From positions 2,916,001 to 2,980,000 of the forward strand of contig CM119373.1 in the NCBI GenBank assembly GCA_051294905.1: a stretch of 64,000 bases of DNA, written 5' to 3'. This DNA is from Botryllus schlosseri. Its lineage: Eukaryota. The notes beneath the pieces were generated by a model. That model was not told the DNA's origin. It searched no databases and saw only the letters and a list, made by a program, of their open reading frames with translations. Below, in pieces: positions 9,715-64,000 of the stretch (position 1 is its first letter; every line of letters begins with the position of its first letter). The position numbers and the translations under genes are program-made.

Positions 9715-9999
9715 CTCATCACCCACTGTTAATTCTGGTCCCGCTTATGTCTGTGTAATGAATATTTAATGATTTTGCGCAATCCGTAAAATGACGAATA
9801 TCACGGTATGAACACATCCAACTTCGATGTTAAACACAATTCAAACATTTTCACCCGCTACCGACGGTTGAATCTAATCTGCTGCACAGCGCTCTCTCGC
9901 GAGTCGAGCTGCCGAATTGCTTGCATATCTTGTTACTTTTGATGAATGAGTATTATTATTAATTCAAGGCATTTCAATGGCGCTTATAGCCTTTTTTAG

Positions 10000-11454: not shown

Positions 11455-11526
11455 TATTCAAATTAAGTCAGTGATTTTTATCAAATTAAGGCAGTGATTT
11501 TTATCAAATTAAGGTAGTGATTTTTA
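11455..11526. repeat. ~24-bp minisatellite x3
   Basis: caaattaag(t/g)(c/t)agtgattttt repeated. Confidence 0.8.
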
Positions 11527-15755: not shown

Positions 15756-15960
15756 TAGGGATGGTGTGAACGTGAGTTTCACGTTCGCGTTTTGTGTGTG
15801 AACCTCCGAAATTTAGAGGTTCACGTTCACAAATGAACCTTGGTAGGTTCTGCGCTGTGAACCTTTTGCATATATTACAATTTTCACTTCGTTATAAAGT
15901 ATTTGTATGAAATGTATTGCATTTCAACGCGTGCGGTCACTCTATGCATGGCGCTGGCTG
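15756..15960. mobile_element. Left end of a TAGGGATGGTGTGAAC hAT-like element
   Basis: Homologous to 56166-56365. Confidence 0.65.
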
Positions 15961-16299
15961 TAGCCGCTAAGTAGCGTACATAGTGCAAACAAATAAGATC
16001 TACTCGAGCAGTCAAAATGAATGAATTTCGATCATACTAGAGGTAAGAAAATAACAGCCTGGCCATATGGAATTCGTAAAACCGTTTTCTCGCGGATTTT
16101 CATATTTCGCCCGGGCCGCAAGATGGCGCTATGAATATCTATTCCTCTCTTCTCTTTTCGCAACCTTTTGCAAATCGATCACCGCGAGAGGGCGCTAGAA
16201 AATTTGAGTCAATACAGTCATACGTCGGTGCGACGTCACACTCACATAAAAGAAAGTTTACTTTTGAAGTGTGACGTCACAGATCCGCAAAAGTCAAGT

Positions 16300-16603
16300 T
16301 CACAATCTTTTCCGGAACTTCATCTCCGAGAAGCGGAGGAGGTTGTAGGTATCACCCCACCAAATCCCCTTGACGCCTGTTTTGCGGAAGTTTCCATTCA
16401 GATTGCTCTCGGCGCAGTTCTTGTACCACCAGCCTCCTTCGCGAAAAGAAGCGCAATTCAATGACGGATGAGAATCGTGATCCGCGTCCTTCGTTGAGAA
16501 TTGTTGATTGTTGTGATATGAGAGACCATCGTAGGTTGCATTCCCGGAGAATCCGGATACGTTCAGTCTGTAGTTGTCGGATCCGGGGCCGATGCCGAAG
16601 GAG
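16300..16603 (-). CDS. Gene A last exon, FReD C-terminal (P) subdomain
   Basis: AG acceptor at 16604-16605; SFGIGPGSDNYRL...FSTKDADHD...GGWWYKNCAESNLNG...FSEMKFRKRL*. Confidence 0.92.
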
Positions 16604-19600
16604 CTGAAAATGAGAACCGCTGAGTGAATTTCGAATGATTCCAAAATGTTAAAATCCTTGCCTTGTTTTTCGCTCGAATAGTTTGTATTTCAGCCTGCAT
16701 GCGTAATATCATAAGTCTATAAGGATTATATTACGGATCATTGGGGTTCTTTCCTAGCAATAATTTTATTCGCCAACCATTATATTGGCAAATATACGGT
16801 GAATACAGGTATTAAACGCTAAAACAGTGACCCTAACGATGATAGAAGTTGGCATATCTCTATGCTCCTGTTGATTTTGTCGCAATCTGGCGTTATAGCC
16901 CTGCGTGTGCGTTGTGAGAAATACAAGATTGATGAAATGCACCGAAATGATAATGCCAACGACTCATATTCACCTGTATTTAGCAACCCAATAAACCTCT
17001 TTTTTCGTGATCATTTTGATTTTCATCTCCATATCCCCTGTCTTGGTCAATTGATGCAATGCTTCCACGCCTGAAAGAAAGTAGAGCGCCAGATGATTAC
17101 AAACTTACATACGTACGAGTTCTTGACGTGGGCGCAGTGACAAGATGATGAAACAAATTCTCCAGTAGTGTTCACTATAAACGCGCTCACACTGTCAATT
17201 TACTTTACCATAGATCTGCTAGATCACGACCAATGGATATGACACCTCTTCGCTCCTCGTGATGTGTGTCTGGGCGCACTTCATGAGATAATACAAAAGT
17301 TGTATATGAAAAGTCGTACCCAACCAATGATCTCCTTGCAAATCGCCGAATCCTTTCACGTAATAATTCCAACCTCTGTCGAAATCAACGTCTCCGTTCA
17401 TTCTTCGCTGGAAAACCTTTCATGAAAATGGAAAGGATTTAATTTTTTCTGCAACAATCGCGCATTCAACTCACGGTCCAGTTTCCTCCATCGTCAGTTA
17501 CGTCACAGAATACATTCGTGGTTCCGACTTCCGGTATGTCTAATTTAAACACACCCCCAGAGTCATTACGTGCTAATGCTGATTGGGCGTCCTCACAACT
17601 TCTCACAAGACCTAGAAATAATAGAATTCGTTTCATAATCGTCAATCGACGAATGACGTCAATCATTCCAGCCTTGTTAATGTCAGATTGGCGGCAGTGA
17701 ACAGCGTGATACTTGTCAAGTTATTGTTAGTGCATTCATTAATTTATGCATATTAACGAAACATGGGATAGGCTCAACCCATCTATTTTCTCTGTCTGCA
17801 ATATCTGTGACTGAATTTACAATCATGGATGTTCGTTACAACGGTTGGCATTTCAACTGTTCAGCCAAATACTGTGTCTTGTAATAATTTCTGATTAAAA
17901 TTTGTGATACTCATTTCAGTTAATCTACGAATTATTTTGGTGCTATATTTAGACTTTATTTTACGAGGGAGAGTTGGAGACTGAAGCCAGATATGCTCAA
18001 ATATCAGTATAAGTCTGATGGTGAATTGACAAGAATGCAGCGTTGGCGAAGGCAGCAGTTCATAAAATATCATCCTCTATAAGCATTGCTTCAATCTGCA
18101 ACGACAATGTCCATGATTAGCCGATTACCACTGCTAAAGATATCTGGCTGACAGTGCATCGCACGAGCTCGGAGGGCCCAAAATTATCTCGTGAATTAAC
18201 ATAAATTATAGAGTATTTTTTTTGGAAATTTAGGCCACTTTTTCAAAAATTTTCGCGCTGAATGCGCTATTGAATATTGCCGAATATATTGATTATTGGG
18301 TACGCATCCCCAACGAAAATACCTAGATTTTATAGAAATGGAGACTTCGATGTCGGACATTACTGTGTCTCGACGCACCAAGACATATGAAGTTATAGGC
18401 CATGTAACATGCGACTCCGAGAAGTGTGCCAGAACAATCAAGAGCGAGAAGAGCTTGACCGAGACGTAATGCCTTTGTGCAGACCGAAAACTTCGAGATA
18501 TATACAATATACTTATATGTTGTCCATAGGCGGCTGAATGGCTGGCGTCGAATATTCATGTCCTGACGATCTGAACCCCACAGGACAAAAAATGGCATCC
18601 CGCAGGGGAAAATTATTTGCCAGTAAAGCAACACCAATTTGAAATCGTGTGTGCCTTTTGGTTTTGGCGATTTCCATATCTTTTGACATAACAGATATAG
18701 GCGGTCACGAAATAGCATAATGTAACGAATTCAATATACCAACGGGTCCGCCGGAAGATCCTTAATACTTATTTAGTTAGGGGTCTTACCTTATCCAACA
18801 CACCTCACTCAGCTCTACCGTTAAATCAGATTACGTTAACAAAGATGGGATAAAAAATTGAGAGCAAAATATATGCAATTCCAGATCATATCGACCTATT
18901 CAAACATGAATTATATAAAAGTTTCGCGCTACGCTCGTTTAGTCGACATAAGGCGACGCAATAAACAGTAGACCCGATGTAGCTGATAAGTAGCGGGGGA
19001 AGGCGTACAGGCTCAGGAGGGCTGAGATGGTTCCGGGGGCTTTATTTGGTTTATCACCCTGTGGGGGGGGCAAGACCAAGCTTTTTTGGGGGGGAGGATA
19101 ACGTAGTGCTTTCAAGGTCTTGGTGGGGAATGAAGGCTCGGAATAAATCTGAAGTGGGGAATGAAGACAAAAAGGTTGGAAACCACTGGTGTAGATGGTA
19201 CGACGCAAATATGACATTTAAAATAGAAACATAATTAGGATTATGATTATTGCCATTGTTGACACTTGGAAGTTTCAGCACAGATTAAACTCATACCGAG
19301 TTCAAGAAACATTATTTCTGTCAGGTGGTTTCATGCCTCCCCTCAGATGCCTCGTCGCCCGGTAACCCCAAAATCAGACTCGAATTTTGCATTTTGCAGT
19401 TTGTCATCGCGACGCAACAATGTCGTCTGCTCAGGAGAAAGTGATCAGCTGCGACGAGAGTGAGAGTAATCAATGGGCAGCGCGAAAACGAGCAATGCTC
19501 CTGTGTATCGTCACAGATATACATTGCGATATTAATGACGGATGTCCATAATTTCTTCTAGTCTACTTTTAGTCTAACAACGTAAGCAATTTAGTTCATA

Positions 19601-21883: not shown

Positions 21884-23974
21884 CTGTATTGACAAGTAGC
21901 GACATCATTTTATTGTTCTTGGTGTTAGGTTGATGCAGCGAATTTGTTGGATTCTGACTACATCATTTCTCATCGACAATGATAAACGTAACAAGAGCAA
22001 TCACCGGCAATCCTACGGATTCACTGGTTCACTTTCATGTATACTTGAATAGTACTGTTACTTTCTATTTTTCAAAAACGTGCCTTAAATATTACAGCGA
22101 TTCAGAAAGTACCTATTTTGAATGCTGTATACGCCTTGCGGGATGGGTTTATGATTTAGCTTATAGTCTGATGTTAAGCTCTAGTGAGCTACGACCAGAC
22201 ACTACAATATGTATATGCTAACTATTCACATGAATATTTCTGACAAGTTTATTCAATACCAATTCGCGCCTCGTGCGATGTTCTTATTGCTGTTCGCGAT
22301 TGGTAATTATAGAGCGGTATCTAATTTATTAATAATCCATATCATCTTTGCCAATCATGATATGATGGTTCTTGCAAATATAGTCGAAATCATATGCTTA
22401 CTCCGCGTTTACTCTTGGCCCGCAATATTTTTAACGATGACAATAAGTCACGACTGCATTGTAACGGGGTAAAAACTAGTGACGTCACAAGATCACAGTC
22501 AAATTTCGAGGGATATGTCCCATAGCTACACCCTTGTATATAACTCATACACAATACGCACTAGGTTTCTGTTTGGATTGAACACGTGTCTGTTGCGAAT
22601 AATTGCGACGGTACATCGTATTTTGGTCGGGTTGTTGATTAGAATTTATCATATTAAAAACAAATATTACAATTCCCTGTTTTATGGTGGAATTTATATC
22701 ATCCAATATGTAATTAGATCATATATTTCATTTCCAATTATCCACTGTCTCAATCTACTAGTCCTAATTTACATGAGCCCACATTTACTGGATATCCTAC
22801 TCTGCCGCATTGCACATTACATATGGCCCTGGTAAAACATGTTTCCTGTTACATTGGTTCTTATCTATTGTATGATTGAATTCTAACACTTTGCTGCTAA
22901 ACGTGGAGTTAAATTCATTCACGAGCGTCACCACACCGACGTCATGCGTTCTATATTTCAAATTCAGACCATAACATTTACCGAGGCTCGTTCATGATCA
23001 AATTCATCGTAAAAGCTTGATGAATAATTAACTCAGTTAAATATGTAGTATAGACCGACGTTTTATCGTCGTAGGGGTAAAGTATAAACCAAGTTGAAAT
23101 GCTTTACTTTTGAGTTGAATTGGAAACGGAGTTTACGGTGATCGACCTATCGATTTCTATAGATTGTTAGTTGCTTGACGATTACTTTATCCAATTTATC
23201 GCAATATCACCTTGTAGAGTAGCTTCAACTCGTTCTCTTTCAGCCAGCTTTTCCAGGTCACTCATAATCGTTTCAAGAGATGTTCCGTCCTTCAAAACGT
23301 ACAATCTTATTTACCTTTCTCGTGAAATCCACCTTATGTGATAATTCACATACATGAAGGCCTGAACAATATTTATGACATGGAATATGAAGGAAATGAC
23401 GAATGTTTTCATTCGTATTTGCTTCTTAGCAGGTGGGTTTACCGATTGCTCGTGCACCTTTATTATGAATTCATGACTAAGTATCCGCGGGTGGAAGAAT
23501 TCACGCGAAATAATTTAGTTGGCTGTTGATTGCGTATCGCACAACACTTCTAGCTGCTTTGTTGGTATCCACCTAATTTCATTTGAATACGCCATATTCA
23601 ACTGGCTTACCTCACAATTTCCATGAGAGATCCATCGTCCATTGATGTAATTTCTACTGCAAAATTGGCCTGCAATAAACGGAAATATTCGGTTCAGCGA
23701 TGGTGTTTTTCAATCGACAGTATGCTGTGAAGCTCGGTATGTGACTTCTAGGCTATCAAAAGAGTGGGGCTATAACATTATTGGGACTCTTTATGAATTG
23801 TTTTGCCAAGTTACCTTTTATCCGGCTATGAACACGTACATCAGTGTACAATGTGTACATCCTTACAAATTTAACTTACAAACCACATATATAACCAACC
23901 AGCAGTGGATTATAACATCGCAGCTTTGTCAAATATCTAACAACATATTGTACGAAAACGATATAGACTTGACT

Positions 23975-38459: not shown

Positions 38460-39169
38460 AGTGGAGTAGATGGAAAATTATTAGCAAGAGATAAAAAGCT
38501 TTACACCGTGATAAATGAACTACAGAAATCCATTGAACAGCTCTAATGTCACTATTGTGTATCGCCCGACAATATTCGTAATATACCAGCGAGATGGGAT
38601 TAGTTTTTGATTAATTGCTCTCGTAAAGTTGTTTCGACAACGTCCTATTTCTTCAACTGTTCATAGTAACGAGCGTAAACTGTATAGCTTTGAATCGGAT
38701 GAATATACTGGTAAAATCGGTTTACAGTTATTAGGATTAATTGCTTTGAGACGGCAACGGCCACGAACGCGAGGGCTCGTCGGTCAAAAGCAAGCACGCC
38801 CGATCAACAACACTCTTATAGAGAGTTGCAGTCGTAATTTTGGCTACTTCTGAATTATTTCTTTTGCAAATACGCATCGCTTCTTCGTAATACATGAATG
38901 TCTTTGAAATTTCCATCCAGTAGCATCCTTCCGTTGCATTGATATGGCATTGTTCTAAATTTGCAGGAATAAATTACAGAACCAATTTAGTAGTATAAAT
39001 GGAAAATGTACTGGTACATTTGACAGTAGATGTATGTGGAGTAGTGGTTCTCAATCCGGGCTCGATCGAGCCCCAAGCTTTCACTAAGTTACTTTCGGGA
39101 GTTTGGCGAACTAGTGGTACGTGATGCATAAAAATGCATATATTCATGCCAATCAACGACTGCTTCGCT

Positions 39170-39692
39170 TAGGAAGGCGTGCGTCGAACTATGTAATAAC
39201 CGATATTCCCAATCGGACAAGTCACAACAATATAAGGAATGTTTTCCAGCCGTTTACAACAGAGAAGACGTGAATGGACTACCGAAAAGGTATCAAAAGA
39301 TAATGTTCCGACTACAAACCGGACATTGCGGATTACAAGCGCACCTATTCAAATTGGGCATAGCAGATTCGGCCAATTGCTCAACGTGCCGTCAAGAAGA
39401 GAGTGTCACCCATTATTTATTGACATGTCGAAGTTACAGACACCAGAGAAGAGTTCTCGAGAACACGGGTCGGAGAAAGAATATCATTCCCACCGTAACA
39501 AACTTGTTGACTGACGCGCATATTTTCCCATGCATTGTTGAATTTGTTCTCGCTACGAAGCCAATTTTGTATTGTAATGTCCAACCGTAGATGTTAAATG
39601 CTCTTTTGGATATGGCGAACACAACCATTCGAGTTATAATTCGCCAATCAAATAATCAACAACGACGACGACGACGACGATGACGACGACGT
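39170..39692 (+). mobile_element. 3' end of a non-LTR retrotransposon (LINE) ORF2
   Basis: RLQTGH..L...L.....SANCSTC..EESVTHYLLTC CCHC motif, short 3'UTR and (AAC/GAC)n tail. Confidence 0.8.
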
Positions 39693-47371: not shown

Positions 47372-48835
47372 CAGAGGTCTCAAACTCAAATGTGCTCGCG
47401 GGCCAATTTCCTAGTTCTTCATGACGCCGCAGGGCGCAGCATCAATAATAGGGATATTCAATGTATAATTTCCAAGTAGGCGTTATTTGACGGGACCTTG
47501 AAGACAGGCATTCCACAAACATCGTGCAAATGTAATTAATTATTGTAATATTCACGCTTGACACGGAAAAAAATCACATTTTCAAATATTTGAATGAAAT
47601 TGTTTTTGTGCCGGGCATAATATTTTGGATTAATGAGTTATAGACGTCAATCGAGAGGATGCATCTTGACACCGTAAAACTGTCGCGTTATAATATTACA
47701 GCTAGTGGACCTTTTACGTGCCACAATTTTATGTAGAATATTTTAAAATCTACTGAAGATTGATCTGATATCAGTCCATTTGAGCGGTGTAGCCTAATCC
47801 TGGTTTTGATATAGTCGTGGTCAGTATAGGCTATTCTTACTGTCATTGCCAACTTCAAATTAAATCAGCGTTAGATTTTGCCTTCGATTATTGTTAGAAC
47901 ATATCAATAACAACTTAAATATAATCATTGAGCCATAGGGTTAGAATATTGCTTCTTAACGTTTTTAGCGATCGTACCCCTTGTGCTTCCAATGAAATTT
48001 CTCGTAGCCACTGTCCAGTTTCAACACAATTTCTGATGGTACCTATATTAAAATCTGAAAGCCCATTCACATAAAATCGCGCGTAGCGCGAAAACTATTT
48101 TCCAGTTGAATAAATTGGCCAAGAAAATATTCCACAGTATATAGGCCTGATTCCCCAATGCATCTCGAACACCCTGATGTGGTGCTTCGTACCCCGACGA
48201 GGTCTACGGACCCTGAACCCCTGGAATAGAAACGTCCAATCGGCGACGAATTCATTGGTGTTACAGCTGTAACTACTACTACTACCTTAGTCGCCACCGA
48301 TAAAAATACGGATAAAGAGAACCACGAGCACCCAGCATATAACCAACTATACGTCACGTGGCTCACGCAATGCCAATGCTTGCCATACTGACCTGATTAG
48401 ATAGCTATATTCCCTACGCAACGCAAGCTCCGACCTTTTGATATATTATTATTCCCATGACAGTTTCATAGATTGTTGGGTCCGTAGGACCAATCCGAAA
48501 TCGAGTAACTTTACGAGAAGGTCGCACCAAAACAAATCACAATTTTCAGTCATGATTCATCAACGGGTCATGTTTTATCATCGTGATCTAGAAAGGTGAC
48601 GTAATAGCTGATCTCCTACCGCATGTTAGCTTTTAAAAGTGATGTGATAGTGAAGTTTGTTGAGATTTCAGTGATTGTTATATTTTTAGGGTGAACTTTA
48701 AGTTTTTATATCTAAAAAGCATACGACACTTGAATATATTGTTGATAACTTGAAATTCCAAAATGTCGTCGCGGGCCGCACAAAATGCTCTCGCGGCCCG
48801 CATGCAGCCCGCCGGCCGCGTGTTTGAGACCTCTG
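47372..48835. mobile_element. Non-autonomous hAT-like element (CAGAGGTCTCAAAC family)
   Basis: Perfect 14-bp TIRs; TSD CTGTAGAC/CTATAGAG. Confidence 0.85.
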
Positions 48836-49599
48836 CTATAGAGTCTGTGTATACAATCAGTTTAAGAGGATTTGTCCTCTTTTTTTACTTTTTTGAAAGT
48901 GTCCTCGCAGGACCCCCAAATGTCCTCTTTTCTGAGAATTTTGATTAAACGTACGTGGAAATTTGCCCGAGATATAGGAAATCAGCGGCCAAATAACGGT
49001 CCGAAGCGTTTACGGAGACTTGAGCCAGAAAATGACCTTGTTTTTAGTCAACCGGCCACGAAGTTGGGTAATATTTACCATTTTTTCATGATTTTATTAT
49101 ATATTAGTATATATTTAGTATATATTGACAAGAAAAAGCAACAACAAAATTGTAAATAGTATGTAAGTATAGGCCTGTAGTGAAAGAAAAACTGGATATA
49201 TCATGTGTAATGGATAACGGGTGAGAACGTGTGGTATTAATGGAAGCAGTCTATGTATGTAGCCGTAAGTAGCCTACATAGTGCAAACAAATAATATCTA
49301 CTCGAGCAGTCAAAATGAATGAATTTCGATCATACTAGAGGTAAGAAAATAACAGCCTGGCCATATTGAATTCGTACAAAACCGTTTTCTCGCGGATTTT
49401 CATATTGCACCCGGACCGCAAGATGGCGCTATGAATATCTATTCCTCTCTTCTCTTTTCGCCACCTTTTGCAAATCGATCACCGCGAGAGGGCGCTAGGA
49501 AATTTGAGTCAATACAGTCATACGTCGGTGCGACGTCACACTCACATAAAAGAAAGGTTACTTTTGAAGTGTGACGTCACAGATCCGCAAAAGTCAAGT

Positions 49600-49668
49600 T
49601 CACAATCTTTTCCGCCGGAACTTCATCTCCGAGAATCGCAGGAGGTTGGGAGGTTGATTCCAATCCCA
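49600..49668 (-). CDS. Gene B terminal FReD segment (WDWNQPPNLLRFSEMKFRRKRL*), coding only if the 485-nt insertion is spliced out
   Basis: Homologous to the gene A C-terminus; preceded by AAG in phase 0. Confidence 0.55.
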   Translation of the reverse strand, partial: WDWNQPPNLLRFSEMKFRRKRL

Positions 49669-52600
49669 CTTTAACGAACTATATTGTTCACGCCATTTTA
49701 ATATTTGAGCAATAGGGAGTGTTGTGAACTTACTTAATTCCCTGAAGTGAAAACCCGATAAGACCTTTGTTATTCGTGTGAATATAGATAAGAGCAATAA
49801 ATCGTACGATGTTTTGTGCATATATTCTCTCGTGGCTATAATTTATATACGCATGTAATACCACGTAGACAGTCATTCGGTTCATGATATTTCGCTGATT
49901 CGGAAGTCCGTTGTATTGCCGTACGTGATTCAATAAAGTTACAAGTCGTGGAGACGGAAACAAAATATATTCGTCAGTGTGATCCATCGAATACGTGTGC
50001 AATAGACAGGCTTCGTGGTACGTCAGCCAACAAGGCCGTACGGCGCGGTTACGCCGGTCCGTCAAAGGAAGAAACACGCAGCGAATTGTAAACGCAACCT
50101 TCTTGGAGTCAGATATACAATTATACAACTACAACATTCGCTCTGCGTTATACCCACCACCAAATTCCCTTGCCGTCTGTTTTGCGGAAGTTTCCATTCA
50201 GATTGCTCCAGCCACAGTCCTCATACCACCAGCCTCCTTCGCGAAAAGAAGCGCAATTCAATGACGAATGAGAATCGTGATCCGCGTCCTTCGTTGAGAA
50301 TTGTTGATTGTTGTTCCATGTGAGACCGTCGTTGGTTGCATTCCCGGAATATCCGGATACGTGCAGTCTGTACTTGTCGGATCCGGGTCCGATGCTGAAG
50401 GAGCTGGAAAATGAGAACCGCTGAGTGAATTTCGAATGATTCCAAAATGTTAAAATCCTGGCCTTGTTTTTCGCTCGAATAGTTTGTATTTCAGCCTGCA
50501 TGCGTAATATCAATAAGGATTATACTTCGGATCATTGGGGTTCTATCCTAGCAATACTTTTATTCGCCAACCATGAAATTGGCAAAAATACCGTGATTTA
50601 CCGGTTGTATACAGGTATTGTTACTAAAACAGTGGCCCCAATGACGATATAAGTAGGCATATCTCTATGCTCCCGTTGATTTAGTCGCAATCTGGCGTTA
50701 TAGCCTTGCGTGTGCGTTGTGAGAAATACAAGATTGATGAAATGCACCGAAATGATAATGCCAACGACTCAGATTCACCTGTATTTAGCATCCCAATAAA
50801 CCTCTTTTTTCGTGATCATTTTGATTTTCATCTCCATATCCCCTGTCTTGGTCAATTGATGCAATGCTTCCAGGCCTGGAAGAAAGTAGATTGCCAGATG
50901 ATTACAAACTAACATACGTGCAGGAGCCCTTGACGTGGGCGCAGTGACAAGATGATGAAACAAATACTCCAGCAGTGTACACTCTAAACGCGCTCACACT
51001 CCCAATTTACTTTACCATAGATCTGCTAGATCAGAGGTCTCAAACACGCAGCTCGCGGGCCGCATTTTGTCCGGCCCGAGACGACATTCTAGATTTTTAT
51101 TAATTTGACAATATATAAGGGTCACATGTATCTTTTCAGGTTATAAAGTGAAAATTCTCTCTACAATTGCTCTGAAAGCCTGACACTATTCATCAAACGT
51201 CACTATCACATCAATTGCAAACGCTCCCATGTAGTGGAAGATTGATTATTTCGTCACATTTTCACTTCATGTTGATAAAACCTGTTCCTTAGACGATTCG
51301 TGACTAAAATTTGTGAGTTGGACTTGGACGTGACCTTTCCTAAAATTACTCGGACTCGGGCTGACTCGATGGAAAAATGAAAAAGACCCGATTGGACTCG
51401 GAGTGACTCGGAATGCCGTGAACTTGCTAGAACCACGGACGCAACAAACTAATCGCGTGTCATGAGAATAGTAGATCAGACGGTCACAGCTTGGTATTTC
51501 GCTAACTAAGCGAGTCGTTATTGCAACCAGTGGCAATCTGTTAGTTACATCTTGGGTCGCTTAGTCCTCGAACCATGTTATTAAGGCCACTTCAAGGTAC
51601 CGAGTACCGTAGTGATACGCTCCAACGATGGGCCGTTCGGCGTTCCGACATTTCTATTACTAGGACACATCCATTAATATATTTTTTATATTTAAATATT
51701 TTTCCGCTCCTATTTTCGAAGAAATTTGACCATGAGATTAATAATAACCACTTATCAGGAGTATAGGCAACCTAGGCTACCCGAGTCCTGGATTGGAACT
51801 ACACTGCCCAACCCAAAAATGTTGTGATCTCAGATCAGTCTCTATTATCAATCTGTTAAATTCGAAATATCAAAGGCGATAGCTTTTTTGATGACATCAT
51901 ACATTTGTCCGCTCATATGTGTCTATATCTTATAATTATTATATATAACGAGTACAACAAGAATCCTATTCAATTAGTTATAAATGTGATAATTTTTTCG
52001 TGCCAGGCCTAAATTGATACAAGAGTAAATCACATTTTGACGATGTGTGTTTACTCGCAGCCTGCTGGATCGGCTCACTTTCAATAGGACAATTCCATCC
52101 CGTCAAATATGGTCTGAAAGACATATAATACCCCTACAGATGCTGCGGCCCGCGGCGTCGTCAAAACTGGAAAACTGGCCCGCGAGCACATTTGAGTTTA
52201 AGACCTCTGTGCTAGATCACGATCAGTGGATATGGCATCTCTTCGCTCCTCGTGATGTATGTCTGGGCGCACTTCATGAGATAATGGAAAAGTTATATAT
52301 GAAAAGTCGTACCCAACCAATGATCTCCTTGAATATCGCCGAATCTTTTCACGTAATCATTCCAATCTCTGTCGAAATCAACGTCTCCGTTCATTCTTCG
52401 CTGGAAAACCTTTCATGAAAATGGAAATAATAATCAATTTTTTTCTGCAACAATCGCGCAGTGAACTCACGGTCCAGTTTCCACCATCGTCAGTCACGTC
52501 ACAGAATACACTCGTGATTCCGACTTCCGGTATGTCTAATTTAAACACACCCCCAGAGTCATTACGTGCTAATGCTGATTGGGCGTCCTCACAACTTCTC

Positions 52601-55600
52601 ACAAGACCTAGAAATAATAGAATTCGTATCATAATCGTCAATCGACGAATGACGTCAATCTTTCCAGCTTTGAAATGTCAGATTGGCGGCAGTGAACAGC
52701 GTGATACTTGTCAAGTTACTAGTGCTCTGAACGTGATGCGTATACTACCGGTACGTTGATATTTTAATGCTTAACCGCGTAAGAATGTGGGTACCCCTCA
52801 CCGAATCTTGACGTGTTGTGGTTATGGCTTGACATCATTTGTTAGTGCACTCATTAATGTATGTATATTAACGAAACATGAGATATGCTCAACCCATCTA
52901 TTTTCTCTGTTTGCAATATCTGTGACTGAATTTACAATCATGGATGTTCCTTACAACGGATTGCAATTCAACTGCTCAGCCAAATACTGTATCTTGTAAT
53001 AATTTCTGATTAAAATTCGTGATACTCATTTCAGTTAATCTACGACAGAGGTCTCAAACTCAAATGTGCTCGCGGGCCAATTTTCCAGTTTTGACGACGC
53101 CGCGGGCCGCAGCTTCAACAGAAGTATTCCATGTCTTTCAAAGTAGGCCGTATTTGACGGGATGAAATTGTCGTATTGAAAGTGAGCCAATCCAACAGAC
53201 TGACATTCAACACTCATCATAAAAATGGGATTTACTGTTGTATGAATTTAGGTCTGGCATAGAAAAATTATCACATTTATAACTATTTGAATGGAAGTTT
53301 TGTTGTATTTGATATATAATTATTATAAGATATAGACGCCATGTGAGCGGACAATTATATAATGTTATCGTAAAAGCTATCACGTTATAATTTTGCAGCG
53401 AATATGAATATTTTGAATTTAACAGATTGATAATAGAGATTGATCTGCTATCACAGCATTTGGGGTTTGGCAGTGTAGCCCAATCCGGGATTCGGATATA
53501 CTCCTGATAAGCTCATGGTCAAATACCTTCGAATATTGGAGCAGAAAAACAACAATACAAATCTATTAATGAATGTGTCATAAATATCGGAAGGCGGATC
53601 AACATCGTTACATCGTTGGAGCGTACCACTACGGTATACTCGGTACCTTTAAGTGGCATTAATAACATGGTTTAGCGACCCAAGATGTAACTAACAGATT
53701 GCCAATGGTTGCCATAACTACTTGCTTAGTTAGCGAAATGCCAAGCTGCGACCTTCTGATCTATTACTATCCCATGACACGTGAATAGTTTGTTGCGTCC
53801 ATGGTTCTAACCAATTCACAGATTTCCGAGTCCATCCGAGTCCACTCCGGTCATTTTCATTTGGCCATCGAGTCAGCCCGAGTCTGAGTAATTCTAATAA
53901 AGGTCGCGTCAATGTCTAACTCAAAAATTTCAGTCACGAATCGTCCAAGCATAGTGCTGTAAACGACTATCGTCTAAGCCTAAGGGTTGGGGTTTATCAT
54001 CATGAATTGGAAATGTTGCGAAATAGGGAATCTCTCCTGCATGGTCGCGGATAGCGAAGTTAGATGAATAGTTTTAGGCTATCGAAGCAGTTTAAGAGGA
54101 AATTTTCCCTTTACAACTTGAAAAGAGATATGAGGCACTTATATGTTGTAAAATTATTGAAATTCTGAAATGTCGCGGGCCGCATGAAATGCTCTGGCGG
54201 GCCGCGTGTTTGAGACCTGTGATCTACGAGTTATATCGTTGTTATATTTAGCCTTTATTTTACGACGGAGAGTTGGAGACTGAACCCAGATATGCTCAAA
54301 TAACAGTCTAAGTCTGATGGTGAATTGAAAAGAATGCAGCGTTGGCGAAGGCAGCAGTTCATAAAATATCGTCCTCCAAGCATTTCTTCAATCTGCTTTG
54401 ACAACGTCCATGATCAGTCGATTATCACTGCTAAAGATATCTGGCTGACAGTACATCGCACGATTATGAGGCCAGTGGAATTACCCAGATATCAGAGACC
54501 AAGCCAAGCCTTAAACGTGGGTTTTATCATTCACAATTGGGCTCTGAATGAAGTTAGCGTCCCACACAGTGAGCTGGCTGCTGATGGTAGCTCCGCGTTG
54601 CCTTGACCCTATTCTTCCCGCCAAGGCACAGACTTGTTGGATAAACCACATTTTGTCTGCATTTCAATTCAAGAACAGGAATAGTTGTATGAAACTTGTC
54701 CCGGAGAGAACATCTCTCTGTATCTCGGCTGGAATCAATGGGTCGTTTTATGCATTTTATATGACTGTCTGTCTGTATTTTACCGGTATTTTGAATGTAT
54801 GCTCGTGGTGGATTTTATTATAGCTAACGCGATAATGAAAATATATTGTCAAATTGTGATGTCTTGCAACATAAGGTTGATATATCTGCCAGAAAGCAAC
54901 AAAGATTCAGGTAGCGATAGGGTTACTAGCGGTTGTAAGCTGCAGTAGCGAGAGGGTTAATGAACGGCAACTGAAGGGTTAATGAGTCTGCAGCTGAAGT
55001 GCAAAAAGTGTATCTTTTGAAGCATCATTTCGACATCGAATGCGCAAAATACGCCGGCAGATCGCTTACCATTTTGTTGACTCGGTAGTACGGCTAAGTG
55101 TAAGTAAACTGACATTTTTCATTATGATGACAGGTATTTGGGTGGCGTTCACAGTAATTTACTGTATGGAACAAATGATCTGTCAAACTTACTGAATCTA
55201 TACACAGCCAAGTATTGTTGGAATTGAGCGTGTCTTATTCTCGTCATAGCTCAATATTCACAAGAAATATGGGCTACGTCGATGCAATCGCACGTATAGT
55301 ACGGACGATTGTCATTATTCATGCATTTACCTCCATATCGACATGTATTCTGGTGGTGTGCACAATATCTCTCTGTGTGGCAGTGAGTGAGTCATTTTCT
55401 GACCATAGCTCAAGAATTAGGATCGTTTTACTTACCACTGCAGTTTTTCCCGTAGTATCCGCCGGTGCAATTACACGTATAGTACGGACGAGTGACATTA
55501 TTCAGACATTTACCTCCATGTTGACAGGGATTCTCGTGGTGTGCACAATATTGTTCTGAACGGAAACAAAGCGATAACTGGGCCATACGTACTGAATTTA

Positions 55601-57761
55601 TACACGGCAGGTAGAGGGACATGGCATTGAGCGAGTCTTATTCTGACCATAGCTTAATAATTAGAAGCGTGTTACGCTTACCAGTGCAGTTCTTTCCATA
55701 ATATCCGTCGGTGCAATTGCACGTATAGTACGGACGGGTGACATTATTCAGACATTGTCCTCCATGTTGACAGGGATTCTGGTGGTGTGCACAATATTGT
55801 TCTGTGTGGAAACGAAGCGATTACTGTGCCATAAATACTGAATTTAGGCACGGCCAAGTGTAAGGCAGTGAGCGAGTCTCATTCTGGTCATATTTTAAGA
55901 ATTAGGATCGATTTACTTACCACTGCAGTTTTTTCCATAATATCCGTCAGTGCAATTGCACGTGAAGTACGGACGAGTGACATTATTCAGACATTTTCCT
56001 TCGTGTTGGCAGGGATTCTGGTGGTGTTCACAATATCTCTCTGTATGCAAACGACGCGTATACGTACTGAATTTGGACACGGTCAAGTGTCGTGGCAATA
56101 ACCAAGTCTTATTCTGGCCATAGCTTAAGAATTAGAAGCATTATACTTAACAGTGGAGTGTTTTATAGGGATGTTGTGAACGTGAGGCTCACATTCGCGT
56201 TCTGTATGTGAACCTCAGAATTTTAGAGGTTCACGTTCAGAAACGAATCTCGGTAGGTTCTGCACTGTGAACCTTTTTCATACATTACAATTTTCACTTC
56301 ATTTTAACATCTTTGGTTGAAATTTATTGCATTTCAACTGCGGGCCACTCTATGCATGGCGCTGACAGTAAAAAAAATCAACACTAAATGAGCATGCACC
56401 TTGACAATCTCAAAAATTTTGCTTGCTTTGTTAGAAGAGTTTGCTCGAAATATCCAGCTTTCCGTATGTGAATATTTAGCGACTCTCTGCTTTGAGCTTG
56501 AACCGCACAACATCACGAGCGAAATACACTACTAGTAGACGTAGTCAGCGAATGATGCTATTCAGCCTATCAATGAAATTGATATCGTTGACTGATGAAA
56601 CAAATCTAACAGGCGTACGAGGTCAATAGCGGTTGCAAAAATAGAAAGCCGTTTTACACTCTGCTCAATACCAACGAGCAATACTCCTACGCCGAATACA
56701 TTGTCCGGTCTGGCCTGGACCGTTAAAACGTAAGCTTATATTCCCTTACAAGTCCTCGTCGAAATTGTTGACAAAGCGACGGAAGATTTTGATTTAATGG
56801 GATTGTTATATCATTTGATTGCCCGAGTTGATACATTCGGCTACGTTCAAAACGTCAATATGTATTTCAGCATTGTGGTATTATGTTACCCGAGCCGTCG
56901 CTAGGTATCATGACCAATTTTACATTAATATAAGCTAGGGTTACCATACGTCCTCTTTTAAGAGGATTTGTCCTCTTCTTTGACTTTTTTGAAAGTGTCC
57001 TCGGAGGACGTCCTTTTCTCCTCTTTTTTGAGATTTTGTCCTCTTTTCTAAAATCTAGGTCAGATTTAGAGCAAATTGCGAATGATATGCAGTAAAGTAG
57101 CACAGAAGTAACGCAACGGATCACAAAGTGGGTAAAATTTACCGGTTTTTGAGAATTTTTCTCAACGGATCACAAAGTGGGTAAAATTTACCGGTTTTTC
57201 AGAATTCTTCTCCGGTTTTAGCAAGTCTTAAATTCTGGAAAAGTGTCCTCTTTTTAGATTTCCAAAATATGGTAATCCTAATATAGGCTATGACTTCACT
57301 GAAATGTAGTGTTGGAATTAGCAATATGACGTCAGGTGATGTAATGAGGTTCACGTTCGAGTTCACACGAACCTGAGCCTTTCAGAGGTTCACACCGTTC
57401 CTAGCCTTTTCCATAATATCCATCGGTGCAATTGCACGTATAGTAGCCTCCGGACGACTGACAATATTCAGACATTGTCCTCCATGTTGACAGGGATTCT
57501 GGTGTTGTGCACAATATTGTTCTCAACGGAGACAAAGCGAAAACTGGGCCATGCTTACTGAATTCATACACGGCAGGGTGTCGTGGCCGTGAGCGAGTCA
57601 TATTCCGGCCATAGCTTAAGAAACAGAAGCGGTATACTTGCCACTGCAGTTCTTTCCATAATATCCGTCGGTGCAATTGCACGTATAGTACGGTTTAGTG
57701 TCATTATTCAGACATGTTCCGATATGTTGACAGGGATTCGGGTGATAATTGCAGTAGCCGC
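49600..57761 (-). CDS. Gene B: paralogous EGF-repeat + FReD protein; last exon split by an insertion; 5' leader unresolved
   Basis: EGF exons 57642-57761 (GC donor), 55921-56040, 55682-55801, 55436-55555; FReD exons 52471-52607, 52313-52409, 50779-50875, 50154-50403 plus 49600-49668; phases compatible. Confidence 0.85.
49670..50152. mobile_element. Solo-LTR-like insertion in the last exon of gene B
   Basis: 483 bp; ends TTTAACG...CGTTATA (each one change from TGTAACG...CGTTACA); 5-bp TSD CCCAC; internal AATAAA; absent in gene A. Confidence 0.65.
50154..50403 (-). CDS. Gene B FReD exon 4 (P subdomain)
   Basis: SFSIGPGSDKYRL...GGWWYEDCGWSNLNGNFRKTDGKGIWWW; runs to a stop at 50148 if unspliced. 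Confidence 0.88.
50779..50875 (-). CDS. Gene B FReD exon 3
   Basis: 97 bp, (G)LEALHQLTKTGDMEMKIKMITKKEVYWDAKY. Confidence 0.88.
51032..52209. mobile_element. hAT MITE in a gene B intron
   Basis: CAGAGGTCT TIRs; perfect TSD TGCTAGAT; empty site in gene A at 17217-17224. Confidence 0.92.
52313..52409 (-). CDS. Gene B FReD exon 2
   Basis: 97 bp, VFQRRMNGDVDFDRDWNDYVKRFGDIQGDHWLG. Confidence 0.9.
52471..52607 (-). CDS. Gene B FReD exon 1
   Basis: 137 bp, LVRSCEDAQ...VFCDVTDDGGNWT. Confidence 0.9.
53046..54221. mobile_element. hAT MITE of the same family, inverted relative to 51032-52209
   Basis: TSD ATCTACGA; empty site in gene A at 17923-17930. Confidence 0.92.
55070..55161 (-). pseudogene. 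Decayed EGF pseudo-exon (gene B)
   Basis: NYCERHPNTCHHNEKCQFTYT*PYY: in-frame stop and 3' deletion. Confidence 0.7.
55270..55372 (-). pseudogene. Truncated EGF pseudo-exon (gene B)
   Basis: RYCAHHQNTCRYGGKCMNNDNRPYYTCDCID; the GYYGKNC end and the donor are deleted. Confidence 0.7.
55436..55555 (-). CDS. Gene B EGF-like exon
   Basis: 120 bp, phase 1-1, QYCAHHENPCQHGGKCLNNVTRPYYTCNCTGGYYGKNCS. Confidence 0.88.
55682..55801 (-). CDS. Gene B EGF-like exon
   Basis: 120 bp, phase 1-1, QYCAHHQNPCQHGGQCLNNVTRPYYTCNCTDGYYGKNCT, CAG/GTAAGC. Confidence 0.88.
55921..56040 (-). CDS. Gene B EGF-like exon
   Basis: 120 bp, phase 1-1, RYCEHHQNPCQHEGKCLNNVTRPYFTCNCTDGYYGKNCS. Confidence 0.88.
56166..57403. 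mobile_element. hAT-like element inserted into an EGF exon; nested MITE at 56936-57280
   Basis: TAGGGATGTTGTGAAC...GTTCACACCGTTCCTA ends; nested TAGGGTTACCATA element with TSD ATATAAGC/ATATAGGC. Confidence 0.8.
57404..57521 (-). pseudogene. EGF pseudo-exon (gene B) broken by a frameshift and a transposon
   Basis: 5-bp insertion GAGGC after RP; the 3' end is displaced to ~56150-56165 by element 56166-57403. Confidence 0.75.
57642..57761 (-). CDS. Gene B first EGF-like exon (GC donor)
   Basis: 120 bp, GYCNYHPNPCQHIGTCLNNDTKPYYTCNCTDGYYGKNCS; donor GCAAGT. Confidence 0.8.
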
Positions 57762-58287
57762 CTGTATTGAAACGCAGCGAGATCATGTTAAAGTTCCTGG
57801 TGTGAGGCAGCGACTTTGTTGGATTCCGACTATAGCGTTTCGCATCAACAATGATAAACGTAACAGGGACAATCACCGGAAATCCTATACGGATTCACCG
57901 GTTCACTTTCATGTATACTTGAATAGTACTGTTACTTTCTATTTTCCAAAAATGTGCCTTAAATAATACAGCGATTCAGAAAGTCCCTATTTTGAATGCT
58001 GTATACGCCTTGCGGGATGGGTTTATGATTTAGCTTATATTCTGATGCTAAGCTCTTGTGAACCACGACCAGACACTACAAGATGTATATGCTAACTATT
58101 CACATGAATATTTCTGAGAAGTTTATTCAATAACAATAAAATATTTCGCGCCTCGTGCGATGTTCTTATTGCTCCTGTTGGCGATTGGCAATTATAGAGC
58201 GGTATCTAATTTATTAATAATCCATATCATCTCAATCACCAATCATGATATTATGGTTTTTGCAAATAGTCGAAATCATATGCTTAC

Positions 58288-58312: not shown

Positions 58313-60492
58313 ATTTTTAACGATGACAGTAGGTCACGACTGCATTGCAACGTGGTAAAAACTAGTGACGTCACAAGGTCACAGTCAAATTTCGACGGAT
58401 ATGTCCCATAGTTACACCCTTGTATATAACTCATACAGAATACGCACTATGTTTCTGTTTGGATTGAACACTGTCTGTTGCTAATAATTGCGACGGTGCA
58501 TCGTATTTTGATCGGGTTGTTGATTAGAATTTATCATATTAAAAACAAAAATTACAATTCCCTGTTTTGTGGTGGAATTTATATCATCCAATATGTAATT
58601 AGATCATATACTTCATTCCCAATTATCCACTGTCTCAATCTACTAGTCCCAATTTACATGAGCCCGCATTTACTGGATATCCTACTCTGTCGCATTGCAC
58701 ATTACATATGGCCCTGGTAAAACATGTTTCCTGTTGGTTGCCATCTATTGTATGATTGAATTCCAACACTTTACTGTTCAACGTGGAGTTGGAATTCATT
58801 CACGAGCGTGTTTACTTATACGCATTCCGGCACAGCATCGTCATGCGTTATATATTTCAAATACATATCATACCATTTACCGACGTTCGTTCATGATCAG
58901 ATTCATCCTAAAATCTCGAGGAACACTAAACTAAGCTAATTTTAATGAACATAGTTTAAACATTTATATATTGTGTCAATAAAAATATATATTTTCATCA
59001 TTTTTAATTGATGAATATTTATGAAGGTGCCTTTTGCTGGTGTAATAAGACGAATAAAACTGAATGTTCCGCTGTTCATCAACTTCATAATTTACCGATA
59101 ACTCTGTGGCCCACAATCAAGTGATGGCGAACCACAGCGTGAATTAGTTTAAAACCCTTGTTGTTTGGTTGTTCGGCTTGTTGATTAGCAAGCGCTGGTA
59201 GCGTCGCAAACAAGTGAAATTTATTTTGATGCCCCGAAACATATACGAAACGCAAGATATGGGCCCATACCATCTGATCCCGCAGTGTCCATATCATTAG
59301 TATATTTTTCTTACCTGAGAAGTCACGAGTGGAATATATGGTAGTTTCAATTTTACAACCGCCCTCGACACAGTTCGAAAATAATTTTTGGAGCTCCGCC
59401 ACGTTACTCGGACCTGCGGATGTATATGATTTCGAAATGAGCGTATAGCGCAGCGTTTGCCTGTGCAGTATTATAGTAAAACGCTAGTGTTGTGGGAATG
59501 TCGGAACGATTCTAGCCATAAGTGTTATTGTTATAGCATGGAACGAGGTGGCGAAGTAAAGGCCCTATATATAAAGGAACGAGACTATAGCCTATTAAAT
59601 TACCTGAAGAGAGCTAATATCCGAGATAACGACTTATAAAGCATGTCCTTGTTATATACAAGGTATTTTCATGGTAATGCATATATGAGCCTATACCGGA
59701 TGCGAGTACTAAACTCATTCTCATTTCGTGCTAATTAGACTTTGAGGATAGAATAAACCATTTGGAACTCACCGAACATGTCGTCCTGAAATATGGAAGA
59801 ATGGAATTAAGTGATATCTAAGCGTTTTGCTGACATATACATTATACATATATTATATATACAACATCACGTTACACGCAGTCGAAAAATAAACCCATAT
59901 AACAGAACGAGCGTTACTATTGAATCCATCCACTATTCAGCCTGTGATTGAATTGTATTCGTACCCCAACCAATCTAATTTAGCGGGTAGTCACGTTCGC
60001 ACTGGTCTGGTGCACGATACCATAGCAGACACGTACAATTAACCCTGCACACAATAGTGTTCTCGAAATCAGTATTTTTCAATTTTGCTTCGATTGCTAT
60101 TTCACATCAGCCTCTTCATTTGAGTTTTTCAATAAGACGTCTCTAGTAAGAGAGGCTTCCAAAACGACTCTCACTTGAAAATTCAGCCTATTAATTATTG
60201 TATCTATCAGCTGATCAGTTTATGTCCTCTTCGTGGTCGCATATTTCAGTTGTACACTTGAAATATTATAAATCGCTCGCAGCACACTTACATGAGTAAA
60301 AAAGTTTCTGTAATTTTTGTTGATGAGAGTATAAGAATTAGAATAAAATAATTATGCAAAATGTGATAGTGGCTTCGGGTATCTGAAACATTGCCATCTC
60401 GAAGTGATTAGAATTAATTGCGAATAATATAGAAAAGGATCCTACACCTTTGTAGTGCCCATGGGATTTGATAAGTGCATGTGCATGTGCAT

Positions 60493-63199
60493 TAGGGTTG
60501 TCCAAAATTTGGAAAATCTCAAAAAGCCTCCTTGATTGTGTCTCATTCTAAAGATTATTGATAAAAAACAACAATTAGCCTGAAAGAAGCTTACAGGAAA
60601 GCCGTTAAGATTTCGGTCAAAGCGTTTGAAAGTAGCTGCTCAAGAATGGGCGTGCCACTGACCATAGAACGGCGAGAAGACTAGTAATCAAATAACCACG
60701 GCTCTTGATTGGCTAATCGGCTATGCTTCAATGACCACGGCAGCAGCAGCTTGCTGATCAGGTGTTCAAGAAGTCTGCTACCGGCGGGGATTCTGAGTGC
60801 GCATTGTTAGTAGTTTGGCAGGTGATGATTTAAGATTAATTCAGGACATGTTGAGGTACGAAATACATGATGAACAAACAACACCTGCTTCACAGAAGCT
60901 TTTACAGCATGACTGCTTCATTGTGAAGGAAACGGCCGAAGCCTACATGTCGTGTTTTCATCGAGAGAAAGCAAAGGCGCTTATGCAAGTGTTGAGCGAA
61001 TTCACCGTTTCAGTACGGATCCACCATCGGTGAATACAACTATATAAAGCTTAACAATGACACTATACGTTGTGTGATCTTATTGGGCTGAAGCTGTAGT
61101 ATATATGTGACGTTTTGAATGCTCTAGAGATCGGCGGAATCAGCCGGTTATGCTTGACCCTTATCAGATGCTTACAACAAATTGAATGCACTTGTAGGCG
61201 TTTTTAGAATCCTTAATGATAACGCAGAAAAGAGGTGGTAATGTACGCACACTCGCACAGGCTGTGCTGGATATGGTATGTCAAAGTCCTCATTGATCCC
61301 GCAGAAAAGAGGTGTATAGAAAAGCACAGACTATGCTGCATATAGTATCCAGCATAGTTTGGATATCATATCCAGCATAGCCTGTGCTTACCTTAAACCT
61401 CTTTTCTGCAGCATCACTAAGGACTTTGACTACTCTTATAAGTGAATTCAATTTGCTGTAAGTTAGGGTTGCCATATTTTAGTTTAACAAATTCCGGACG
61501 ATCTTTAGCGCCCACTAGCGGATTTCAAAATGAGGTATGAGCATATTGTCGATCAAGATGACGTCACACAAGCAAAGCTTTGTCTATCGACTAGAGGTGG
61601 TCAATGGTCATGATTAAGTTCAGGAGTATGTGGTTGTATGTTGTAAGTTGTAACTAGGGCCGAAGCCACACTTTTTTCAGACCCCTTCCCTACAAAATAA
61701 ACACTGGGTCCACCGTCAGGTAATCGATGCAGCTTCTGGGGGCTTACTAAATGCATTAGGCCGTTAAATTATTTGAATGAGTTATATCAATAATATTGGT
61801 TCTTCCATATACTACATGATCAAAGTTAGCGGTAGACCTGGTGGAGGATGATGACTTCGAAAATGTAAGGAGCGTAATTGTACATCGCTAAGTCATGTTC
61901 ATGTCACACCGATAAGATTATGCGTACTGCACCACCGAGCTATATAAACGCCGCACATCCGGTGGCTTCCGACCTTTTATGGTCGCGATTTCATTTCCAA
62001 TTCGAAAATGTTCCGTGGTCCAGTTCAAAATTTGATGAGCTGATTACTTACTCATGGTCTATTTTGGAAGCTGATTACGTTCAAGATGTTCGCGAACCAC
62101 ATAATAAAGGCAAACTACCCCAGGTTTAGAACCTCTATATTTGAATAAAGCATCCAAATGGCCTAACCCGAATCTATGAATATACCGTTATTTTTTAATT
62201 GCGATTAAATAGACTCATTTTTGTAAATGAATGTTATTTTTATTTAATTTTGATCGCAGTTTTGCGAGGATGTTATAGTTCCCATATTAAATCCAACATA
62301 CAGTATACTAAATCGCGCGCAGCGCGAAGAAAAATTTCATGTGGCATAAATCTGCCCAAAAGTAATATTGTTTATGCTGATTTACGAAACAATTATGAGC
62401 TCACTTCAAGCCGTCAAAATTCCGGACATTTAGGCATATTTTAGAAATTCTTCCCGGACGCAGTTTTGACAGTGAAATTCCGGACATGTCCGGGAAATTC
62501 CGGACGTATGGCAACCCTACTGTAAGTATAACTGCCAAGCATAACCGGCCGATTCAGTCGATCCCTAGAACCTTCAATACTTCACTATATACTACAACTT
62601 GGGTCCAATAAGATCACACAAAGTATAGTGTCATTGTTAAGCTTTATATATTTGTATTCACTGATGGTGGATCCGTACTGAAACGGTGAATTCGCTCAAC
62701 ACTTGCATAAACGCCTTTGCTTTCTCTCGATGAAAACACGACATGTAGGCTTCAGCCGTTTCCTTCACAATGAAGCAGTCATGCTGTAAAAACTTCTGTG
62801 AAGCAGGTGTTGTTTGTTCATCATGTATTTCGTACTTCAACATGTCCTGAACTAATCTTAAATCATCACCTGCCAAACTACTAACAATGCGCACTCAGAA
62901 TCCCCGCCGGTAGCAGACTTATTGAACACCTGACCAGCAAGTTGCTGCTGCCGTGGTCATTGAAGCATAGCCGATTAGCCAATCAAGAGCCGTGGTTATT
63001 TGATTACTAGTCTTCTCGCCGTTCTATGGTCAGAGGCACGCCCATTTTTGAGCAGCTACTTTCAAACGCTTTGACCGAAATCTTAACGGCTTTCCTGTAA
63101 GCTTCTTTCAGGCTAATTGTTGTTTTTTTATCAATAATCTATAGATTGAGACACAATCACGGAGACTTTTTGAGATTTTCCAAATTTTGGACAACCCTA
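60493..63199. mobile_element. Foldback-type element with ~660-bp terminal inverted repeats
   Basis: Arms 60493-61156 and 62536-63199 are near-identical reverse complements; TAGGG ends; perfect TSD ATGTGCAT. Confidence 0.9.
61464..62519. mobile_element. hAT MITE nested in the foldback spacer
   Basis: TAGGGTTGCCATA TIRs; perfect TSD CTGTAAGT. Confidence 0.9.
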
Positions 63200-64000
63200 A
63201 TGTGCATGAAATATTCTTATAGTAGTTTGACATAGCCTGCTCGAAATTTACAGGCTGAAACGAATATCATGAGAATACTGACCCGAAATCGAAGACTATT
63301 GCTGATTCAATTGAGGTCAGTATGAAGGGATACTGAAATTGTGGTGAGCTTCAACCAACACATCCCCCACGAAAAATCAAAACTTTTGAAATTGATTGGA
63401 TCAAAACTATATATGAGTGGACTGCTCAACACATAGAATTATCCTATGATTTCCATAAATCCTGACATACCGTCATTCTCAGCTCGACTTCCTTTTCGGG
63501 TGCGCAATGGTGTTCCCCTGAAAACGAATGAGTAATCTTTAAATGGGTCCTTAAATTGAATTACTGTTATTACTAAATTCCGTTTTATCTTTACGTTACA
63601 GCTAGATGATGTATAGATATAACACTATTGGATGCAGCTAATTGCCTCAATTATTCAATCGGTTCTTGTTTTAGAATAATCCATGCCTGTAAACTCAACC
63701 GAAACTGAAGCGAACGCAGCTCATAATTTTCATATAGTTAGAGAGTTGGCTCTTCACATTTAATAACTTTGCGAACACTGCAAGCTTTCGGCGACCCCAT
63801 ATATTCGCATATTCACAAAAATCTATTACATTACACATCTAGTACATTACTTTGTACTATACTAGAGCACAAAATTAACTGCGCATCAACAACAGTGTTA
63901 AAAAAAAGCAATTAAAACATGGCTGTCACACAAAACGAAAACATTATGATGAATATTTATTGGAAATCCGAGTGAATTATGTTTTATTACTCTGGTGTGA

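Follow-up and report, generated by a model that had tools for sequence, protein, structure and literature searches.

The locus described here raises the question of whether an insertion in the last exon of a fibrinogen-domain gene of Botryllus schlosseri is removed from the transcript as a newly gained intron, or whether it has simply disrupted the gene. The first-pass annotation of this DNA had proposed the former, with a solo LTR as the inserted element. The window, that is, the whole stretch of 64,000 nucleotides analyzed (contig CM119373.1, positions 2,916,001 to 2,980,000), has a GC content of about 40%. It is animal DNA in which spliceosomal introns and a large tandem duplication are found, and its minus strand carries two copies, A and B, of a fibrinogen-domain gene with four exons (Table 1).

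When analyzed with Pfam, exon 4 of gene A and exon 4 of gene B matched Fibrinogen_C (FReD) with 54.7 and 56.8 bits, respectively, for a cut-off of 22. The solved domains nearest to those of A and B are FIBCD1, ANGPTL6 and ficolin-2, and the nearest FReD relatives in protein searches stood at 37-53% in some cases and at up to 67%. The FReD family is large, as 67 contigs of run X1 were found at one exon-4 site. No protein product with the gene B loop was found at E 10 among 61 candidates, and literature searches returned no mention of the inserted element or of gene B, from which no wider absence is claimed. Upstream of each FReD gene, the minus strand carries an array of single EGF exons (19700-21900 and 55000-57800); one of these exons has a GC donor (near 57640), and another has lost its acceptor AG (near 20267).

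Table 1. Features of the FReD locus, in window coordinates
Feature	Position	Strand	Remarks
Gene A, paralog	16300..17636	-	219 aa in 4 exons; insertion absent; loop has 3 residues fewer than that of empty B
Gene B exon 1, coding part	52471..52632	-	
Gene B exon 2	52313..52409	-	Codon 76 is Arg; Gly in gene A and in 114/116 homologous domains
Gene B exon 3	50779..50875	-	Intron 3 joint observed in paralog reads
Gene B exon 4, before insertion	50154..50403	-	Pfam Fibrinogen_C, E 3.7e-15
Gene B exon 4, after insertion	49600..49668	-	Variable loop, last strand and stop; open
TIR element in gene B intron 2, absent from A	51034..52219	.	1186 nt, 8-bp TSD
Inserted element, 483 nt	49670..50152	+	Multi-copy, probably solo LTR; own sense +, antisense to gene B
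TATA-like stretch of element	49837..49849	+	
AATAAA of element	49932..49937	+	About 85 nt after TATA-like stretch; second AATAAA at 49796
TSD (GTGGG), upstream copy	50153..50157	-	Last G is +1 of proposed donor; first G is +1 of stronger competing donor
TSD (GTGGG), downstream copy	49665..49669	-	First G is the end of proposed AAG acceptor
Proposed GT..AG intron, 485 nt	49669..50153	-	Frame restored on paper; absent from the 15 of 137 joints listed
Best-scoring rival intron, 416 nt	49742..50157	-	7/11 U1 pairs at donor; CAG acceptor with pyrimidine tract; frame kept, 24 extra residues
ATTAAA, possible cryptic poly(A) signal	49697..49702	- (gene B sense)	About 30 nt before proposed acceptor
Premature stop TAA, unspliced reading	50148..50150	-	203 aa; last domain strand lost (alignment to solved FReD domains)

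Insertion and reading frame

The 483 nt inserted in the last exon of gene B (50152 to 49670) lie between two copies of GTGGG, and this target-site duplication (TSD) is perfect (5/5); at fixed ends, a 5-bp perfect repeat has a probability of about 0.001. The edge at 49670 is also the match end in eight contigs of run X1, which have unlike flanks, and in two contigs of run X7. At the other edge, one run X1 contig (record 3) matches up to 50152 and continues for 134 nt beyond. Since other copies stop matching at these positions and their flanks are unlike, both edges correspond to real element ends. The duplication and its coordinates had been annotated exactly, and the edges of the element are here set independently by the other copies.

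Upon removal of the 485 nt from 50153 to 49669, gene B is left with an open frame of 224 aa reaching the native stop, which is longer by 3 nt and one Trp. The terminal G's of this intron are supplied by the TSD, and the neighboring T and A by the element ends; all this had been read correctly from the DNA and was confirmed. It was equally correct that the unspliced frame stops early (after 203 aa), and alignment to solved domains indicated that the last FReD strand is then missing. This strand is required for folding.

The statement that gene A has no intron at this place has to be qualified. The insertion is absent from A, but A is not the empty site: gene B is longer than A by 497 nt here, and the difference of 488 nt, with its +3 nt, holds only in relation to an inferred empty B allele. 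The spacing between GIxW and EMK would be 13 residues in empty B (the commonest value, 36 of 72 homologous domains) and 14 in spliced B (6/72), and it is 10 in gene A (5/72). These counts were made on 155 proteins, in which the spacing pattern caught 72 of 144 domains and the test for Gly at codon 76 caught 116, the rest being unmatched. Among the 15 of 137 joints listed, none corresponded to an empty site with exactly 488 nt skipped; many paralogs are, like gene A, free of the insert, and their loops are different.

The in-frame GT..AG pair with its gain of 3 nt is automatic, because the element reads T..A on both strands and the target reads G-NNN-G, whatever the length of the element. When the same element was placed at each of the 667 coding positions of gene B, the strict arrangement arose at 49 of them (7.3%); if any in-frame GT/AG pair no more than about 5 nt from the ends is counted, the number is 66 (9.9%), in either orientation. 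Splice dinucleotides taken from the TSD and a conserved frame, as in introners, are thus present at the gene B site and expected at 7% of sites, and the in-frame GT..AG is hardly more than chance. The C-terminus downstream of the insertion is still open, as had been noted. However, when neutral change was simulated, the last 66 nt remained open in 96% of cases at 0.5% divergence and still in 65% at 5%; this observation has therefore little power, and it was rejected as evidence for splicing.

Splice-site strength and transcripts

Splice sites were scored by simple counts and duplex energies, not by an organism-trained model, and compared with a few introns that are paralogous. On this scale, the proposed donor at 50153 makes 4/11 U1 pairs, the commonest value among the 3639 GTs of the minus strand, whereas the six FReD donors make 5-9 pairs and the seven EGF-exon donors make 8. 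Four nucleotides upstream, the donor at 50157 makes 7/11 pairs, with an energy of -10.3 kcal/mol versus -5.4 for the proposed donor; its junction with the proposed acceptor results in a frame shift. The proposed acceptor at 49669 is an AAG with 6/11 pyrimidines, which is equalled or bettered by 47% of 3300 AGs, and it is preceded 10 nt upstream by another AG. In comparison, the acceptor at 49742 is a CAG with 8/11 pyrimidines and ranks in the top 9% of AGs. Both proposed sites are weak, in agreement with the earlier reading, and they are outscored by 50157 and 49742. Of the 18 donor/acceptor pairs tested, nine reach the native C-terminus in frame, the best pair being 50157/49742.

Native sites of the family can be similarly weak. 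The intron-2 donor of gene B has a U1 energy of -5.3 and shares the TGG/GTA context of the proposed donor, and intron 1 of both A and B ends with an AAG acceptor with 7/11 pyrimidines. Weak sites of this kind therefore work in gene B if they have no rivals. In the EGF exons, two of the seven acceptors have only 6/11 pyrimidines, but with CAG. Furthermore, the ATTAAA within the insertion could end transcripts at about the proposed acceptor. RNA folding of 49660-50165 revealed no special structure (z 0.83).

Transcripts were examined in the raw RNA run X23, which comes from one tissue of another individual that may lack gene B. About 6% of the run was searched, and 1312 reads were aligned at 86% likeness, 20 of which are at least 99% alike; the run listings covered 15 of 137 joints, 40 of 454 letter rows, 24 of 714 loose ends and 24 of 2625 pieces. 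FReD family transcripts are plentiful in X23 and come from other paralogs. Intron 3, joined in 33 reads, is the only RNA joint among those listed. In exon 3, the gene B letter was lacking at 50791 in 132/132 reads, and at 50803 and 50805 all 155 reads had letters of neither A nor B. Similarly, 306 of 310 reads were without the gene B letter at 50349, and the depth over 49276-49401 was 0-0.22. The share of gene B among the family reads has a 95% upper bound of about 2%. No 485-nt joint was present among the 15 of 137 joints listed, where a rare joint may be hidden. Gene B is no visible contributor to the X23 transcripts, and only this is shown by X23.

One alternative is that gene B is expressed somewhere and that several splices together, for the most part not the proposed one, rescue it in part. 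The pair 50157/49742, which scores best, would retain 72 nt of the element and TSD as 24 residues (partial exonisation), and half of the pairs tested would restore the native C-terminus. Imprecise splicing of exonic transposons is moreover a classical phenomenon, reportedly observed for the retrotransposon 412 in Drosophila vermilion, Tc1 in C. elegans and Ds in maize. As in those cases, the gene B insertion lies in an exon and offers cryptic sites near its ends; splicing was reportedly shown for 412, Tc1 and Ds, whereas for gene B it is only possible. Against a rescue of this type, no such joint occurs among the 15 of 137 listed, and the resulting spacing of 37 residues is far outside the range of 7-17 found in 72 homologous domains. 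It is considered rather unlikely.

Nature of the inserted element

The element clearly belongs to a repeated, mobile family, and a multi-copy element within an exon is what introners present. In run X1, summed contig depth, which is not copy number, was 830-17,420 over the element versus 8-150 over 49150-49590; in run X5, the same quantity, with the same reserve, was 2,734-74,669 versus 34-836. The window itself contains no second copy. Rare gene B-type letters of the element were detected at single-copy depth at 49771 in samples S1 and S2, and were absent at 49914 (X1) and 49872 (X5). Run X7 consists of contigs only, and gene B letters missing from it were not counted as absence.

A solo LTR was likely at the origin of the insertion, to judge from its structure. 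The TSD has a length within the 4-6 bp of solo LTRs. Its termini, in contrast, are TT..TA on the plus strand and TA..AA on the minus strand instead of TG..CA; on the plus strand, the ends read TTTAACG ... CGTTATA and match in inverted orientation at 6/7 positions. The earlier identification as a solo LTR is retained as probable LTR derivation of a mobile, multi-copy insertion with a 5-bp TSD, and is weakened by the ends. A purine tract of 9 nt ends 2 nt before 49670 in two contigs of run X7 only, a TATA-like stretch is followed by AATAAA on the plus strand, and the part of the element beyond 49906 is several-fold deeper than its first half. Because of these three features, the LTR would have its own sense on the plus strand, antisense to gene B. 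The size of about 480 nt, the 5-bp TSD, the short inverted ends starting with T and, for some copies, the purine tract that precedes one end are shared with Gypsy or BEL/Pao solo LTRs.

Instead of a solo LTR, the insert could be a non-autonomous element that is complete in itself, has short inverted ends and makes a 5-bp TSD. This would account for the unusual termini and for the match of other copies, which extends through the terminal base on either side and suggests shared end letters; it also fits the fact that no provirus was seen, exact-pattern scans having given 0 matches in metagenome contigs and 0 in viral contigs. On the other hand, the purine tract can be understood as a polypurine tract, and the deeper half as a shared R/U5 next to a variable U3. 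The TATA-like stretch and the AATAAA that follows it argue in the same direction, and the inverted ends are only 7 nt long. LTR ends other than TG..CA exist in plants, where the available part of bioRxiv 10.1101/137141 gives TG..GA, TA..TA, TA..CA and TG..CT. The TT..TA / TA..AA ends of the gene B element are not among these four motifs, and the full list of seven may differ. That the element is not an LTR is regarded as unlikely. The open frames of the element (132 and 80 aa) matched no Pfam family, and no Rfam match was found inside it. As the match of other copies appears to include the terminal bases, the whole family may have TT..TA ends and a purine tract 2 nt before the left end, which would be unusual termini for an LTR family; such family-wide non-TG..CA ends would be a small side lead.

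State of gene B and relation to introners

The first 201 codons of gene B and all its six splice sites are intact. Simulations of neutral decay left such intactness in 24% of cases at 2% divergence and in 3% at 5%. In the last 46 nt, both substitutions relative to A are silent. Since codons and splice sites are intact and these last two substitutions are silent, any loss of gene B function would be recent. A and B differ by 8 silent and 27 replacement changes in 201 codons; the resulting dN/dS of 0.92 (Fisher p 0.83) fits relaxed or diversifying selection. Codon 76 of gene B encodes Arg, which none of the 116 homologous domains has at this position. Four large blocks (1184, 120, 1186 and 497 nt) are present in B and absent from A, and none is present in A and absent from B.

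Among the paralog joints of run X5 with letters listed, nine of ten are in frame, with -5 to +5 residues relative to empty B. Judging from the paralogs, one extra Trp would probably be tolerated in the loop. The loop after GIWW (49645-50177) is hypervariable in length and letters among paralogs, the frame being kept in those nine joints. Replacements between A and B are concentrated at codons 143-149, 180-184 and 195-196, and the divergence reaches 9.3% in exon 4, while exons 1-3 differ by 2-5% and the 3' UTR by 2.7%. These features hint at diversifying selection or gene conversion.

Other rearrangements were observed around the gene. A 1.2-kb non-coding TIR element with 8-bp TSDs, which we take to be hAT-like, lies in intron 2 of gene B and again at 53046-54239, about 410 nt upstream of B, both copies being absent from A; further copies occur at 5739-7248 and 47372-48841. 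The 120-nt block (52719-52838) occupies the positions 87-206 nt before the start codon and is flanked by similar short motifs; it is an insertion in B or a deletion in A, with no second copy in the window. In run X1, record 2 (49463-49635) has B-type UTR letters and a 3-nt gap, and is probably without the extra Arg codon of B; this would mean either that individuals differ in their B-like haplotypes or that there is a third close paralog. Elsewhere in the window, a 680-nt inverted repeat with 94.7% identity (60484-61164 and 62528-63208) encloses about 1.4 kb, and an open frame on the plus strand (39132-39590) with a zf-RVT match (E 3.5e-06) is probably the tail of a non-LTR retrotransposon.

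We consider it fairly probable that gene B, as a copy, has recently been disabled or is decaying, and that splicing rescues it to a minor extent at most. An LTR retrotransposon would have integrated in antisense orientation into the variable loop of the last exon, duplicating GTGGG, and would later have been reduced to one LTR by recombination. The T..A ends and the G's at the target edges would then have created the GT..AG pair, with its 3 nt, automatically. The ordinary sites so formed would lose to retention, to cleavage at the internal ATTAAA or to the stronger neighboring sites, and gene B transcripts, if made, would mostly encode the protein of 203 aa without the last strand, or other aberrant ends. 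Loss of one paralog would probably cost little. Against this explanation stand the 485-nt joint that may be hidden, the origin of X23 from one tissue of another individual, the native sites of similar weakness, the intact first 201 codons and six splice sites, the two silent substitutions and the probable tolerance of one extra residue. In addition, a dN/dS near 1 can also result from diversifying selection in a lectin, and the 120-nt block found only in B may be a deletion in A.

The opposite explanation is that the spliceosome efficiently removes 50153-49669, giving a 224-aa B protein with one extra Trp and a newly gained intron. The exact frame with GT..AG and the intact upstream frame speak for it, as do the loop spacing of 14 found in six homologous domains, the similarly weak native introns of gene B and the location of the element's AATAAA on the opposite strand. 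In addition, such a mechanism exists elsewhere, according to the available parts of PMC9860276 and PMC12130899. However, the 485-nt joint is missing among the 15 of 137 listed and B-type reads are missing at exon 3, the arrangement has a 7% chance of arising, a stronger donor lies 4 nt away with an intervening AG at the acceptor, and Gly76 is replaced by Arg. Efficient removal of the intron thus appears highly improbable. A live gene B in an unsampled tissue, from which the antisense TT..TA solo LTR would be removed precisely as a new intron with one Trp in a hypervariable lectin loop, is very improbable indeed. Finally, it is extremely unlikely that a repeat and a FReD paralog were wrongly joined in the assembly: no indexed run has more than 54% of the words of 49300-50420, and no contig bridges the filled-site junction among the 24 of 2625 pieces listed, but the TSD is perfect at edges set by other copies, both flanks are colinear with gene A, and the B-type 3' UTR occurs without difference in run X1 (record 1).

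The possible gain of an intron is therefore not supported, as no spliced read was found among the 15 of 137 joints listed, gene B letters are absent at exon 3 in X23, stronger rival sites are present and the open C-terminus is of low power. Intron gain is unproven, and simple disruption is probably the likelier outcome.

Nor would a solo-LTR origin be new, because introns formed by solo LTRs and splice sites recruited from TSDs are already described in the accessible portions of PMC12130899 and PMC9860276. The latter describes introners of Florenciella and Aureococcus whose two splice sites are supplied, in whole or in part, by the TSD or the flanking exon; some of these introners add codons. 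The gene B site resembles them by its splice letters taken from the target duplication and by the whole codon added. In contrast, those introners are numerous within their families, supported by RNA and efficiently spliced (PMC9860276, same portion), where gene B offers one site and no spliced read, and the family of its element is not known to form introns elsewhere. As far as PMC12130899 is available, LTR elements represent about 12% of the confidently classified introner cases, with "co-opt both" rows for LTR families, and solo-LTR introns are represented by a Copia family in Panicum virgatum. The gene B site shares with these LTR-derived introners an LTR or solo LTR in an exon; unlike it, they were checked against RNA-seq. 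Introners were known in only two animal groups in PMC9860276, to which the portion of PMC12130899 at hand adds families in sea urchin and in the tunicate Styela clava, the latter with one classed LTR/Pao. The Styela row shows mostly non-canonical sites and a 2-bp TSD, unlike the clean 5-bp TSD and non-TG..CA ends of the gene B element. If spliced, the gene B locus would work like an introner; being a candidate identified from the DNA alone, it is not filed as one.

As it stands, the insertion in gene B is one more transposon hit in a large and fast-changing lectin family, with a mechanism already described. If it were spliced, it would join the rare cases in animals where an intron was recently gained from an LTR, and it would be one caught early and with a testable allele pair. 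If true, the underlying rule would be general: irrespective of its length, an LTR with T..A ends in a 5-bp G-NNN-G target would give an in-frame intron, and about 1 in 14 coding sites would qualify. The combination of T..A ends and G-NNN-G, with its gain of one codon, thus defines a predicted class of sites, open to a genome-wide screen.
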